Assembly: GCA_963696295.1 (NCBI GenBank)
Contig: CAVOJR010000001.1
Location: 3,072,001 to 3,136,000 of the forward strand
Direction of reading: 5' to 3'
Length of the DNA stretch: 64,000 bases
Origin: an uncultured Chlamydiae bacterium
Lineage (GTDB): Bacteria > Chlamydiota > Chlamydiia > Chlamydiales > JAJFMB01
The position numbers and the translations under genes are program-made. This document shows positions 36,786 through 55,659 of this stretch, in pieces (position 1 is the stretch's first letter; every line of letters begins with the position of its first letter). The notes below the pieces were generated by a model. It did no database searches, was not told the origin of the DNA, and saw only the letters and a program-made list of their open reading frames with translations.

Positions 36786-39700
36786 TCAAAAAAAGTTCTT
36801 ATCCTTTTCCTTTTTGTCTAATTGTTTTGAGGCCAGGTCGGCAAGAGCGTTCATGGCGACAAAAAGAGCAGAGGCTTCAGCATTTCCGCTCTTATCTGTA
36901 TGCAAAAGAAGGGCTAATTTTTTTCTGACTTTACTTAAAGCTTCTTTAGTTTTTTCTTCCAGATCAAAATAGGAGAGGGGATCTAAATTTGCGTTAAGTA
37001 TTTTCGACTTAAAATCGTTGTAGGCTTTTGACTTGGTAGGGTCGATCGATCTGTTTTCCAGGACACAGGCATTTAGGATATTTTCTACCAGTGTGGCCGC
37101 ATTTTCGATGCTTTCCCCTTCGAACAGCTTTTGGTAAGTTCCTCTATCTATATAAGCCGGAGGCAGAACCAACCCGGGCGCTTGCTTTTGGTGTAATGTT
37201 CGTAAAAGTTCTAAGGGGCCTTGCGACTTTTGCAGATTATCTATCGCTTCGTTTAACTCGCTTATATAGCCTGGTATCTCGCTGCTCGAATTATTCTTTT
37301 CAAGCGCTGACACATATCTTTTTAAACGGTCTATTACCGTTGACGCAAAGAAGGGATAACTGAACACAATTGGGGCAATGGAGTTTTTTAAATCGAGATC
37401 TTTATCTTCCTTGATTGTAGAAATAAGGCGATTCACTTGGGCGACACAACTGACGATTTCAAAGTCATATTGAGCGATTGCCCTGTTAAAATCTAAGTAG
37501 TAAGAAGGGAGAGGCTTGCGAATTTCCGCTTCAACTTCTTTAGGGCAAGCGTTGTTTGCGATACGAAATTTGGATATATACAGATCTGCCGCGCGAAAAC
37601 AATCGATACTCTTCTGGTGTTGCATGGCGAGAGCTACCCACTCGTTTAACCAATTCAGCGATTGGGAGTTCAACTTTCCTCTATTTTTATTCTGAAGTAA
37701 CGTAATTTTTTCCATAACACTATTTCCGCGTACAGGAAAATCGTATGGAATAGGCATGCTTTCAACTCCCTGGGGCCTCCACAGGGCAATTTGATCATTT
37801 AATGTCTTAATAATGAGTAGCAAATTAAGTTCAGTAATACCTATCTTCTCGGCATAGATACCCCTATATTGAGGGAGGAGGGGATATACATTTAAAGTGG
37901 ACTCCTTAATGCTTCCGCCCATTTGCAGATACTGAGTACGGCACTGCTCAACAACTTTTTGCTGCTGCTGTAATTTTTGTATGACCTCACTTATTTCCTG
38001 TTGGAGGGTTGCATTGTGCGTAGTTTTTCGGCACTCCTCTAATTTAGCGGCATAATCGCGGCCTTCAAAGGGCAATTCGGCAACAGAGCCTTTTACAGTG
38101 GCTATTAAAGGGTTTGCGTTGAGGAAGATGATGTCGCAAAGATCCTTTTGGGCTTTTACATATTCGCTCAGGATCTCTTCAATCGTTTTTGCGCCCTGTG
38201 TCGGAACCGGCTCCTGGACAGGCATGTTCGGGATATTCCCCTCGTTGAACAGGTTTTGATAGGTTTCTTTGTCCTGATAAACTCGAGGCTGAACAAAAAA
38301 GGGCGGGGACTGTTTTTTGTGTAATTCCCGAAAGAGATCTAAGAAGCCTCCTAAAATTTCCAAATTATGGGCAGCTTCTTTTAGCTCATTGAGGCCGGTT
38401 GATTTAGCTTTTTCAAGATGAATTAAATATAGTTTTAAGGTGCTTATCACAAATTTTTCATCTATGGGATAACTGAATTCAAATGGGGCAATGAGGTTTT
38501 TTAGATTGTTTTCGAGCTTATTATCCACTTTGATTTTTGCTAGGAAACGATTCACTTGCGCCAAACTGGTGACAATATCACGTTCAATATGAGGGATGGC
38601 TTTGGTAAAATCTAAGCAAGAGGGCGGTAGAGCTTTGCGGATTTTCTCTTCGATATCTTTAGGAGCATTACCCGGTAGAGGAAATTTAGAAATATGCAGA
38701 TCGGCTGCGCGATTAAGATCCATTATGGTCTGCTGCTCTGTGACGATTGCTTTCAAATTTTCTAACCATTTCTTCGCTCCTTCATCCAGCTTCGCTCCAT
38801 AATTTCTCAAGATGGTTTGGGTTCTTTCTAAAATGGCATTTGCGCTTAAAGGGAAATTGTATGGCAAAGAGACGCAAACAATCCCCTGTTTGCCCCACTG
38901 AGATATTTGTTCATTTAATGTTTTAATGGCTTTGACCAATGTGAATTCGGCAAGACTGATATTTTCGGCATAGGTTTCCCTATATCGTGGGAGCAAGGGA
39001 TATAAATTTATGGTCAAATCCACACCATTTCCCCCCATTTTTACATACTGATCCCGGTGCTGTTCAACGACCTTTTGCTGCTGCTGCAATTTTTGGATGA
39101 GCTCTGTTGTTTTTTGGCATTCTTTCAGTTTGGCGACAATTTGGCGGACATCAAAGGGGAATTCGAAGATCTTTATTACGTTCACTTCCTGAAAAATAGT
39201 ATCGGTAAGCTCAGTTTGCGCCTTAATATAAAGATCCAAGATTTCTTTTCTCGCAGCAGTAGTCTCGGCTGACACGGTGTTATTATCCTTGCCGATCGAT
39301 TTCTCGCTCTCGGTTTGCATTGACGCGTCTTTGCCGAGCACTTCGGTTTGCATTGCCGCGTCTTTTCCGAGTACTTCCGTTTGCATTATCACATCTTTGC
39401 CCGTCACTTCGGTTTGTGTTGCCGCTTCTTTTCCGAGTACTTCCGTTTGCATTATCACATCTTTGCCCGTCACTTCGGTTTGTGTTGCCGCTTCTTTGCC
39501 GAGTACTTCCGTTTGCATTATCACATCTTTGCCCGTCACTTCGGTTTGTGTTGCCGCTTCTTTGCCGGATGTTGCTGTTTTTTGCCGGTCGTTGTTAAAA
39601 TAGGCGAAGGAAAAAACACCGCCGATTAAAACCAAAATTTTGTAGGTTGTCGTTTGGACATAGCTAAATGCGCCGTAGATTAAAGCTGTTTGGGTCGCAA

Positions 39701-40022
39701 CGGCCATAAACGCTCCGGCCACTTTTAAATCATCAAATGCCGCTTTGGCATATTGTTTTGCTTTCTCTGAATCAGTGGCATCTACGATCTGATATTGCGC
39801 CCAATTCCAGAGTGCGCCGGCCGGTGCGACTATGGGACTGAGTATTAGCGCGGAAAAGGCAATCCTGGCAATCACGCGAGGTCTGAACTCTTTCCAGGAG
39901 CGGGCCTTTTCGGCGCATTCGCCCGGGCGGCATAAATAAGTCGTATAAAATTTGCTTTGTATTACTTTTTCAGTAAATGAAAAAGGAGGAGTTTGATTAT
40001 CAAACTTAATGGAATAAAGCAT
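36786..40022 (-). CDS. Large membrane-anchored putative effector: TM region, QT-motif array, duplicated ~345-aa domain, C-terminal J-like domain
   Basis: 1078-aa ORF; repeats visible in translation; RKKLALLLHTDKSG at the C-terminus. Confidence 0.85.
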   Translation of the reverse strand: MLYSIKFDNQTPPFSFTEKVIQSKFYTTYLCRPGECAEKARSWKEFRPRVIARIAFSALILSPIVAPAGALWNWAQYQIVDATDSEKAKQYAKAAFDDLKVAGAFMAVATQTALIYGAFSYVQTTTYKILVLIGGVFSFAYFNNDRQKTATSGKEAATQTEVTGKDVIMQTEVLGKEAATQTEVTGKDVIMQTEVLGKEAATQTEVTGKDVIMQTEVLGKDAAMQTEVLGKDASMQTESEKSIGKDNNTVSAETTAARKEILDLYIKAQTELTDTIFQEVNVIKIFEFPFDVRQIVAKLKECQKTTELIQKLQQQQKVVEQHRDQYVKMGGNGVDLTINLYPLLPRYRETYAENISLAEFTLVKAIKTLNEQISQWGKQGIVCVSLPYNFPLSANAILERTQTILRNYGAKLDEGAKKWLENLKAIVTEQQTIMDLNRAADLHISKFPLPGNAPKDIEEKIRKALPPSCLDFTKAIPHIERDIVTSLAQVNRFLAKIKVDNKLENNLKNLIAPFEFSYPIDEKFVISTLKLYLIHLEKAKSTGLNELKEAAHNLEILGGFLDLFRELHKKQSPPFFVQPRVYQDKETYQNLFNEGNIPNMPVQEPVPTQGAKTIEEILSEYVKAQKDLCDIIFLNANPLIATVKGSVAELPFEGRDYAAKLEECRKTTHNATLQQEISEVIQKLQQQQKVVEQCRTQYLQMGGSIKESTLNVYPLLPQYRGIYAEKIGITELNLLLIIKTLNDQIALWRPQGVESMPIPYDFPVRGNSVMEKITLLQNKNRGKLNSQSLNWLNEWVALAMQHQKSIDCFRAADLYISKFRIANNACPKEVEAEIRKPLPSYYLDFNRAIAQYDFEIVSCVAQVNRLISTIKEDKDLDLKNSIAPIVFSYPFFASTVIDRLKRYVSALEKNNSSSEIPGYISELNEAIDNLQKSQGPLELLRTLHQKQAPGLVLPPAYIDRGTYQKLFEGESIENAATLVENILNACVLENRSIDPTKSKAYNDFKSKILNANLDPLSYFDLEEKTKEALSKVRKKLALLLHTDKSGNAEASALFVAMNALADLASKQLDKKEKDKNFF
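39309..39566 (-). repeat. 8 x 33-bp coding repeat GK(E/D)xx(T/M)QTEV(T/L)
   Basis: AATQTE x3, VIMQTE x3, AAMQTE, ASMQTE. Confidence 0.95.
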
Positions 40023-40066
40023 AAATACCCAATAATATTAGGTAAGGATTATCGCAAAAAAATCTA

Positions 40067-54761: not shown

Positions 54762-55058
54762 TTATTCTCTGATCCCAGAAGTAAGAAAATTTCTACCAAT
54801 AATCACTACCCTGTTAGCGTAATTGAAAAGTTTCTCCCTAACTTGTTTATCCGAAGATATTGAATAAATGATGTCTTTCAGATCTTCTGCTAAACGTTGA
54901 AATTTTGCTTTGTCGTTACGACAGTTGAATCCCATTTCCAAACAAATAGCATTCACTTTTTTAGCGAGTTCTTCCCGATATTCTCCAACATCATAGGCAA
55001 CAAGCGCCTCAGCAATCCCGTAAGAAGCATATGCTTCACAAGCCAACATAGTGTTCAT
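54762..55058 (-). CDS. Hypothetical protein
   Basis: 98-aa ORF with an AT-rich upstream region. Confidence 0.55.
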   Translation of the reverse strand: MNTMLACEAYASYGIAEALVAYDVGEYREELAKKVNAICLEMGFNCRNDKAKFQRLAEDLKDIIYSISSDKQVREKLFNYANRVVIIGRNFLTSGIRE

Positions 55059-55302
55059 TTTTTTCTCTTGATAAGGTTAATTGATTTGCATAGGAGAAAA
55101 GAGAATAACATAGAAGAAACTAATAAATCAACTTGATAGACTGAGTAAACGATCGGGCCAGGAATGGGCCAGTCGTATCTGCCTATCGCAAATAACATCC
55201 GAGCGAATGCATTACGGGATGTTAAATTATTTCTTTATATTATATTTAAAATAATTTAATAAATGACTGCTATAATTATATTTTAAACCAAAGAGGTGTA
55301 AA

Positions 55303-55659
55303 ATGACTGTACAAAATCATATTCATTCACAGACGCCAGGTAACCAAGAGTATACCAAGGCCAAATTCCTGACAAATGCCTGGCAGGAGAATAAGAAACT
55401 CACCCAAGCTCTAGCTGAGCAAGGAGCGCATTATATTGCAAAAGCAAATACCCCTCCTCCTCCGCCGCCCGCTTCAATGAAGCCAAAAAACGTGCAAGCG
55501 ATGAAATTGCCCCAAACGCCCCCACATTCGGAATCAAAAAATGTGCAAACAATGAAATTGCCGGAATCAAAAACAGCCTACTTTGAAGCTTTAGCAACCA
55601 AAGTCAAAGAGAGCGCGCGGGAGCTGTTTTCCTTTGATTGGCTTTTCAATCGAGCCTAA
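55303..55659 (+). CDS. Pro-rich hypothetical protein (putative effector)
   Basis: GAGGTG RBS; PPPPPP tract; KNVQ(A/T)MKLP duplicated. Confidence 0.7.
   Translation: MTVQNHIHSQTPGNQEYTKAKFLTNAWQENKKLTQALAEQGAHYIAKANTPPPPPPASMKPKNVQAMKLPQTPPHSESKNVQTMKLPESKTAYFEALATKVKESARELFSFDWLFNRA

Follow-up and report, generated by a model that had tools for sequence, protein, structure and literature searches.

The window analysed here is a 64,000-nucleotide stretch (C1:3072001-3136000) of the 3.43-Mb, two-contig, 97% complete genome of an uncultured chlamydial bacterium. A chlamydia-like affiliation is indicated by the closest MenB relatives, which come from Parachlamydiaceae metagenome-assembled genomes (81-84%), by an Hc2-like histone gene in the window and by genes for type III secretion. 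It encodes a 1,078-residue protein, here called the QT protein, in which a hydrophobic N-terminus is followed by eight tandem units resembling ligands of the eukaryotic hub protein LC8 (DYNLL/Dyn2). An earlier note on this DNA had proposed a wider toolkit, in which the QT protein and three neighbours with SxIP-like, TSP and NVQT motifs would recruit LC8 and EB proteins to the chlamydial inclusion. The region appears to hold a single good new candidate, a multivalent LC8 ladder of bacterial origin; the neighbourhood around it has been over-interpreted.

Anatomy of the QT protein

The QT gene and its parts are:

36786..40022, minus strand: QT protein, 1,078 residues, with a hydrophobic N-terminus, a candidate LC8-type motif ladder, two helical domains and a J-like C-terminus
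39591..39881, minus strand: hydrophobic N-terminal region, residues 48-144 (Kyte-Doolittle hydropathy)
39303..39566, minus strand: QT array, eight 11-residue units, residues 153-240, a tandem repeat with a 33/66-bp period
38238..39269, minus strand: all-helical domain, copy 1, residues ~252-595 (structure model)
37098..38189, minus strand: all-helical domain, copy 2, residues ~612-975 (confident structure model)
36792..37058, minus strand: J-domain-like C-terminus (profile, structure and motif comparison)

By Kyte-Doolittle hydropathy only, the N-terminal region has three hydrophobic segments (residues 48-73, 101-119 and 124-144), to be compared with the bilobed segment of chlamydial inclusion membrane (Inc) proteins. 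It is conserved family-wide up to about residue 100. The structure model, which draws on a shallow alignment, is ordered outside the linker: the predicted local distance difference test score (pLDDT) falls below 50 over residues 108-250, and residues 148-251 lack secondary structure. The array thus sits in a predicted disordered region, as expected of an LC8 client. The two helical domains are 45% identical (E 2e-87), and the helical domain is modelled at pLDDT 90.7. Fold searches with the whole model and with the helical domain returned generic bundles only (best Z 9.1 and 9.5), and Foldseek returned nothing for either at E <= 0.001.

Both fold and profile place a J domain at the C-terminus of the family. 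Model residues 989-1077 align to the DnaJ-like structure 2ys8 (Z 7.4), the family profile matches DnaJ structures at E 1e-5, and the J domain of one relative (P0006) scores above the Pfam cut-off. Four relatives (P0003-P0006) have the HPD motif in this DnaJ-like end. The QT protein itself has HTD at residue 1041, and since HTD replaces HPD, stimulation of Hsp70 is doubtful. HopI1 of Pseudomonas syringae reportedly also combines a repeat linker with a C-terminal J domain; the likeness is one of anatomy, with no homology shown and with HTD in place of HPD in the QT protein.

The QT array resembles LC8 ligands

The array unit reads G-K-[DE]-x-x-[TM]-Q-T-E-x-x, and three of the eight units carry TQT and five MQT. 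We computed motif statistics over the 2,833 called genes (995,533 residues) and all 11,705 open reading frames (ORFs) of at least 60 residues. The patterns were picked only once the sequence was known, and high counts represent tandem copies of one or two units. The genome holds 117 in-frame tandem arrays (period divisible by 3 and no shorter than 15 bp, score of 80 or more), and for these reasons conservation and context outweigh the counts. Matches to [TVIMS]Q[TV][DE] number eight in the QT protein and two in the called gene that ranks next. Synonymous changes between the unit types retain Q-T-E-V and G-K, and shuffled units reproduce the pattern, itself set post hoc, in 0.2-0.4% of trials.

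According to the accessible text of PMC6607443, LC8 ligands have an anchor, a weak preference for basic residues at -5, a polar residue at -4 and D/E/P at +2, and the LC8 groove is conserved across eukaryotes. All eight QT units are polar at -4, avoid bulky aromatics at -2, carry D/E/P at +2 and contain no Pro internally; position -3 is large in only three of them. In a 62-row LC8 affinity table, Chica QT1 (IDAATQTE) binds at 0.4 µM and AMOTL1 (KDSSTQTD) at 1.55 µM (PMC12057147). The QT unit KEAATQTE and the unit KDSSTQTE of the homologue P0002 differ from these peptides by one or two residues. A sequence search of the PDB with the array gave nothing meaningful.

A homologue with a rewritten repeat

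A search of 1.84 billion representatives with the QT protein gave 32 matches, nine of which, besides the QT protein itself, match its non-repeat parts. Eight of these were aligned; the ninth, P0020, is a 97-residue J-like fragment. Common to the aligned relatives are the anchor at the N-terminus, a linker that varies and the helical domain. The repeat-only matches (P0008-P0032 except P0009, P0010 and P0020) were set aside as low-complexity look-alikes; 13 were inspected, and two are named fish proteins.

The closest homologue, P0002, is 56% identical to the QT protein (E 3e-131) and carries alternating units with an 11/12-residue period at the same place as the QT array. Identity is 70% in the N-terminus (101/145) and 60% in the body (100/168). 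Within the array it is 72% at positions -1 to +2 (23/32), 31% at -5 and -4 (5/16) and 6% elsewhere (3/47). P0002 has swapped its repeat sequence yet retained the LC8 motif core, the acid at -4, the Glu at +2 and the period. A third member, P0003 (31% identical to the QT protein), has two CQT motifs just past the anchor, and here too the motif is kept above its flanks. Of the 17 units of the three proteins, 15 have D/E at -4, 13 have K/R at -5 and 14 have E at +2; these conserved positions match the LC8 preferences as reported in the part of PMC6607443 consulted. The LC8 mimicry claimed in the earlier note for the QT protein thereby gains evolutionary support; the rest of the toolkit fares less well.

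The array could instead be a neutral or structural low-complexity spacer whose likeness to LC8 ligands arose by chance in a repeat-prone genome. The 117 arrays are compatible with this, as is the linker, which is hypervariable in the family, Pro-rich in P0006 and missing in others. A neutral spacer is hard to reconcile with P0002, in which nearly all non-core positions were altered and the core, flanking acids and period were kept, or with the rarity of the pattern among shuffled units. We consider it improbable.

Several observations weigh against an LC8 ladder. The Met at -1 in five of eight QT units and the Cys at -1 in P0003 are absent from the 62-row affinity table, and five of eight units carry a small residue at -3, a disfavoured choice. 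Peptides that possess the anchor often do not bind: non-binders made up 31 of 53 phage hits and 12 of 19 picks from a position-specific scoring matrix (PMC6607443). The array is absent from six of the eight aligned relatives (P0004-7, P0009 and P0010) and is thus dispensable for the family. The core identity between P0002 and the QT protein is partly circular, because the array alignment was anchored on QT. The three hydrophobic segments fit more than one sidedness.

Where the QT array would sit, P0006 has Pro-rich repeats of the type LDE[LV]PPP[KLQ]V, which resemble EVH1 ligands. This suggests that the linker is a swappable motif cassette.

A homologue search with QT residues 40-330 found only the window's own protein. 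The family profile matches 246 of 399 other scored genomes; among the matches listed, it reaches only the J-like end, at best at E 1e-10, and no full-length member is among them. A DNA pattern for three QT[DE] motifs occurs in 6 of 400 other genomes, vs 11 for the reversed control. Since one hit (L093) is convincing and one (L091) doubtful, in-frame QT arrays are rare in this sample. No contig context for the QT family was found among the metagenome contigs or genome contigs.

L093 (G096:C12:1-1624) is a coiled-coil protein of another chlamydial family with at least four 13-residue ATAVATQT(EPP) repeats at a contig edge. These repeats could possibly form an independent LC8 ladder, unrelated to the window proteins. 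Eukaryotic LC8 genes also occur inside several prokaryotic genome records (L083-L088, L102-L109), apparently on contaminating contigs.

A possible LC8-stiffened spacer at the vacuole

We favour, at a probability of roughly 0.62, the reading that the QT protein is aimed at the host, is anchored in a membrane and uses the disordered linker beside its anchor as a multivalent LC8 ladder. The ladder taken by itself also seems probable. Beyond the array and its homologues, the type III secretion system (T3SS) genes of the genome and the DnaJ-like domain of full-length family members count in favour of this reading. Of the T3SS genes, sctN and sctU are intact, and sctV is split over three frames.

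The QT protein would be exported, probably via the type III system. Its N-terminus may insert into the inclusion or another host membrane, leaving the C-terminal part cytosolic. Host LC8 dimers could then join two chains running in parallel, with each 11-residue unit taking up one dimer; the TQT units would be bound first and nucleate the assembly, and the MQT units would fill cooperatively. Binding would pair the effector and stiffen some 90 disordered residues into a rod; scaling from KANK1, in which 15 dimers span ~53 nm, gives a length of ~25-30 nm. The rod would keep the helical and J-like domains away from the membrane. As described in PMC12803091, LC8 ladders with short linkers assemble into rods in Nup159 and KANK1, and weak sites bind cooperatively. 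Because closely spaced sites give rods in these proteins, we infer an LC8-coated, paired spacer for the QT protein.

The array could also act as an LC8 sponge that titrates the hub away from clients such as dynein intermediate chain, Bim-like and ASCIZ-like proteins, or as a ligand of another host reader of xQTE. Eight sites per chain would suit a sponge, as would the range of 0 to 8 sites across the family and the more than 100 clients reported for LC8 (accessible text of PMC12057147 and PMC12017986). The fixed 11-12-residue period beside a membrane anchor suits ladder geometry. LC8 is abundant, which also counts against titration. We give this alternative poor odds.

The spacer would be a counterpart of known LC8 assemblies. 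In the Dyn2-interaction domain of yeast Nup159, the L2 region of KANK1, ASCIZ and Chica, as in the QT protein, TQT-type motifs follow one another at short distances in a disordered stretch that is bordered by folded or anchoring parts. The candidate ladder of the QT protein differs from them in being bacterial, in having arisen by tandem amplification of DNA and in carrying five MQT units. The QT protein also resembles rabies P, Ebola VP35, HPV E4 and rotavirus VP4 as a pathogen protein with (here candidate) LC8 motifs. The viral mimics have one site per chain in the tables consulted, whereas the QT protein has eight beside a membrane anchor. These viral proteins are thought to pair or rigidify themselves and not to ride dynein (PMC12017986). 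Viral hijacking of LC8 is documented in the accessible portions of PMC6607443, PMC12017986 and PMC12057147. In the literature searched, mostly abstracts and few subscription papers, no tested bacterial LC8-motif effector appeared, only a docking study on a Pseudomonas pilin.

A broader version is tentative, with somewhat less than even odds: environmental chlamydiae would possess a family of membrane-anchored J-domain effectors with a swappable motif cassette next to the membrane. Tandem amplification would build this cassette, as an LC8 ladder in one branch and a Pro-rich repeat in another, with an LC8-stiffened vacuole rod as the form found here. If the ladder is real, LC8 mimicry would reach intracellular bacteria, with eight sites and a homologue in which the repeat was rewritten in nature. 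The regular alternation of strong and weak sites would let LC8 biophysicists probe cooperativity and MQT anchors. It would also show tandem amplification building host-motif cassettes in chlamydial effectors.

LC8 motifs alone do not imply microtubules. Structures of LC8 with its clients speak against a role as a dynein cargo adaptor and identify LC8 as a dimerising hub (PMC12017986), so a link to microtubules does not follow from such motifs by themselves. Some C. trachomatis Incs do bind DYNLT1, CEP170 and CCDC146 (PMC6717882, in the text available). The microtubule-acting pairs CT850-DYNLT1, IPAM-CEP170, CT288-CCDC146 and IncB-SNAPIN share a hydrophobic N-terminal anchor and a predicted cytosolic tail with the window proteins. 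They differ in that CT850 binds a Tctex-type light chain and not LC8, and no sequence relation to the window proteins, whose Inc status is predicted, was found. The Inc-microtubule literature, as represented by the accessible part of PMC6717882, mentions no LC8-motif Inc.

An SxIP-like protein

41196..41966, plus strand: SxIP-like protein, 256 residues, an orphan with a two-lobed hydrophobic segment (residues 31-76) and a Ser/Pro-rich tail
41492..41722, plus strand: array with a 27-bp period, xxSS[VI]IPP[VG], no basic residues (tandem repeat scan)

The gene caller preferred a 157-residue ORF on the opposite strand. We read the plus frame as real because a GAGG stands just before its ATG, the DNA upstream is AT-rich, the N-terminus is hydrophobic and the changes from unit to unit are synonymous or V/I. 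The two lobes (residues 31-51 and 54-76) would make this protein more Inc-like than the QT protein, again by hydropathy only. Homologue searches found only the window's own protein.

Eleven [ST]x[IL]P motifs lie at 41433-41798, eight of them in the array, and the core thus recurs in the Ser/Pro-rich tail. The next highest count is seven, in proteins of 2,556 and 3,616 residues. The SxIP-9AA context rule of Jiang, as quoted in the accessible text of PMC3649978, calls for K/R among X1-X4 and no D/E. Ten of the eleven motifs fail it and the non-repeated IRTHIPGTP alone passes; the 135-residue tail has no K/R at all. The claimed recruitment of EB proteins is not upheld by these contexts. An EB ligand driven by avidity seems unlikely; in its favour, hydrophobic residues after SxIP aid EB binding (PMC12695022, available portion) and S[VI]IPP is retained across synonymous changes between units. 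The tail also matches USP7 (8) and SPOP (6) ligand patterns, and it fits these or a plain Ser-rich linker equally well.

The nearest parallel is p104 of Theileria annulata, an EB1 ligand. Both are membrane-attached pathogen proteins (predicted here) with SxIP in a Ser/Pro-rich disordered tail (PMC3649978, accessible text). p104 has one SKIP in a basic context, and the window protein has eight S[VI]IP copies without basic residues. The same text reports Theileria proteins with credible SxIP motifs that did not bind EB1.

TSP, NVQT and coiled-coil proteins

52260..53729, plus strand: TSP protein, 489 residues, FAST/RESC6-like helical-repeat protein (Atlas features, precomputed PF26188 match)
52356-52373 and 52437-52454, plus strand: DRATSP of the two KVDRATSPI copies in an N-terminal duplication of the TSP protein (sequence)
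55303..55659, plus strand: NVQT protein, 118 residues, Pro-rich orphan in which ESKNVQTM is well formed and a second copy is degenerate
51191..52159, plus strand: coiled-coil orphan, 322 residues, 63-bp repeat, weak SMC-like match

The TSP protein resembles FAST-kinase/RESC6 helical-repeat proteins by Atlas feature scores of 0.90-0.94, an Atlas recognition under its reliability mark, and by the precomputed PF26188 match; our own scan gave no Pfam match. Its N-terminal duplication sets it apart from such proteins and spans ~22-27 residues, more than the motif alone. A homologue search found its own protein and one weak partial match in 1 of 150 genomes.

VDRATSPI matches six of eight residues of RDVATSPI in PAK1, in two copies. 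No called gene other than that of the TSP protein has two [DE]xxTSP, and D.ATSP was observed twice vs 0.5 (range 0-2) in 10 proteome shuffles, with no close homologue in which to assess conservation. PAK1 is the weakest ligand in the LC8 affinity table, at 42 µM (PMC12057147). The start of KVDRATSPI recalls the TRPS1 motif KVDRSTQDE (PMC3789673, available part). The pair is plausible but doubtful as a PAK1-type LC8 ligand.

In the NVQT protein, SKNVQT at 55534 is preceded by a degenerate KNVQA copy. Matches to [KR].[TVI]QT number 41 vs 35.4 (27-42) in 10 proteome shuffles, so a single SKNVQT stands at background and its proposal as an LC8 motif is weak. ESKNVQTM is well formed, yet unlikely to be an LC8 ligand. 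A homologue search found the protein itself and otherwise one match with stops (E 1e-3).

A scan of the coiled-coil protein for AAxxG and Spindly-like motifs found none. Its QT dipeptides are ruled out as LC8 motifs by their helical context and by L/I/D/K at -1.

The neighbourhood as a whole

The other genes considered are:

33925-34689, plus strand: SycD/LcrH-like TPR chaperone gene, under the curated cut-off
34782-36500, plus strand: ankyrin-repeat gene, adjacent to the QT gene
40067..41101, minus strand: gene lying between those for the QT and SxIP proteins, present in 8 of 60 relatives
42053..51016, plus strand: DUF3638 giant protein, 2,987 residues, no motif array, of a paralog family spread over the genome
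53751..54710, plus strand: conserved gene, not effector-like, 58-71% identical in 5 of 40 relatives

All four motif sets described in the earlier note are present (QT 39303-39566, SxIP 41433-41798, DRATSP 52356-52454 and SKNVQT 55534), as are the long coiled-coil protein among them (322 residues) and hydrophobic segments in two of the motif proteins. The note saw in these genes a coordinated unit that brings LC8 and EB to the inclusion and so links it to microtubules. The proteins with the genome's highest counts in three motif classes do lie within ~13 kb, and the QT and SxIP arrays are a suggestive 1.9 kb apart. Only 3.3% of 3,280 19-kb windows hold at least three arrays. The known engagement of microtubule and centrosome proteins by C. 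trachomatis Incs also fits, and avidity helped by downstream hydrophobic residues could offset weak SxIP sites.

Against a coordinated unit, the genes face both ways, and the genes interleaved with them are unrelated and have relatives in other contexts. None of the seven relative loci of the 40067-41101 gene that we checked encodes another window protein, nor does one lie within 1.5 kb of the relatives' 53751-54710 homologues. Another array lies within 2 kb for 29 of the 117 arrays. The failed SxIP contexts, the Theileria precedent, the USP7 and SPOP matches and the structural case against LC8 as a cargo adaptor weigh in the same direction. We regard the coordinated unit as quite improbable. 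The boldest extension of the QT reading, in which the neighbours contribute a pair of PAK1-type LC8 motifs and an EB array that works by avidity, is very unlikely in its full form. The region looks like an ordinary effector-rich, repeat-prone stretch in which the SxIP, TSP and NVQT proteins are separate, much weaker candidates.

The chlamydial family to which the 40067-41101 gene belongs is frequently represented by tandem pairs in relatives. At its N-terminus (42053-43000) the DUF3638 giant has GGW...HA and QRSGTC motifs in common with some paralogs; their His-before-Cys order is that of CE-clan proteases/deubiquitinases. Orphan genes at 33304-33912 and 55755-57188 flank the region and encode two-lobed, Inc-like hydrophobic segments.

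Sequence basis and other repeats

The genes rpoB (C1:2144979-2148732) and sctV (C1:256120-258152) are each spread over several reading frames, which probably reflects local indel errors in the assembly; the ORFs discussed here are open. No RNA sequencing run is listed for these genes. One DNA sequencing run yielded short near-identical pieces, none reaching the arrays. Promoter and terminator scans gave 30 vs 23.7 and 32 vs 26.3 hits in real and shuffled sequence, near shuffle level.

Other repeats occur in the window and beyond it. An Hc2-like histone protein at 19778-20416 has a 30-bp repeat in 12.8 copies, and a 75-bp x 4 tandem repeat at 3498-3795 overlaps a short ORF and a gene end. Amplified repeats at C1:368802-370037, 1124601-1125488, 1130283-1132556 and 1269702-1273046 contain four IQ-like, four PPxY, and four and five [FL]PPPP motifs. 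Since PPxY, LPPPP and IQ-like repeats sit elsewhere, motif amplification appears to be genome-wide.

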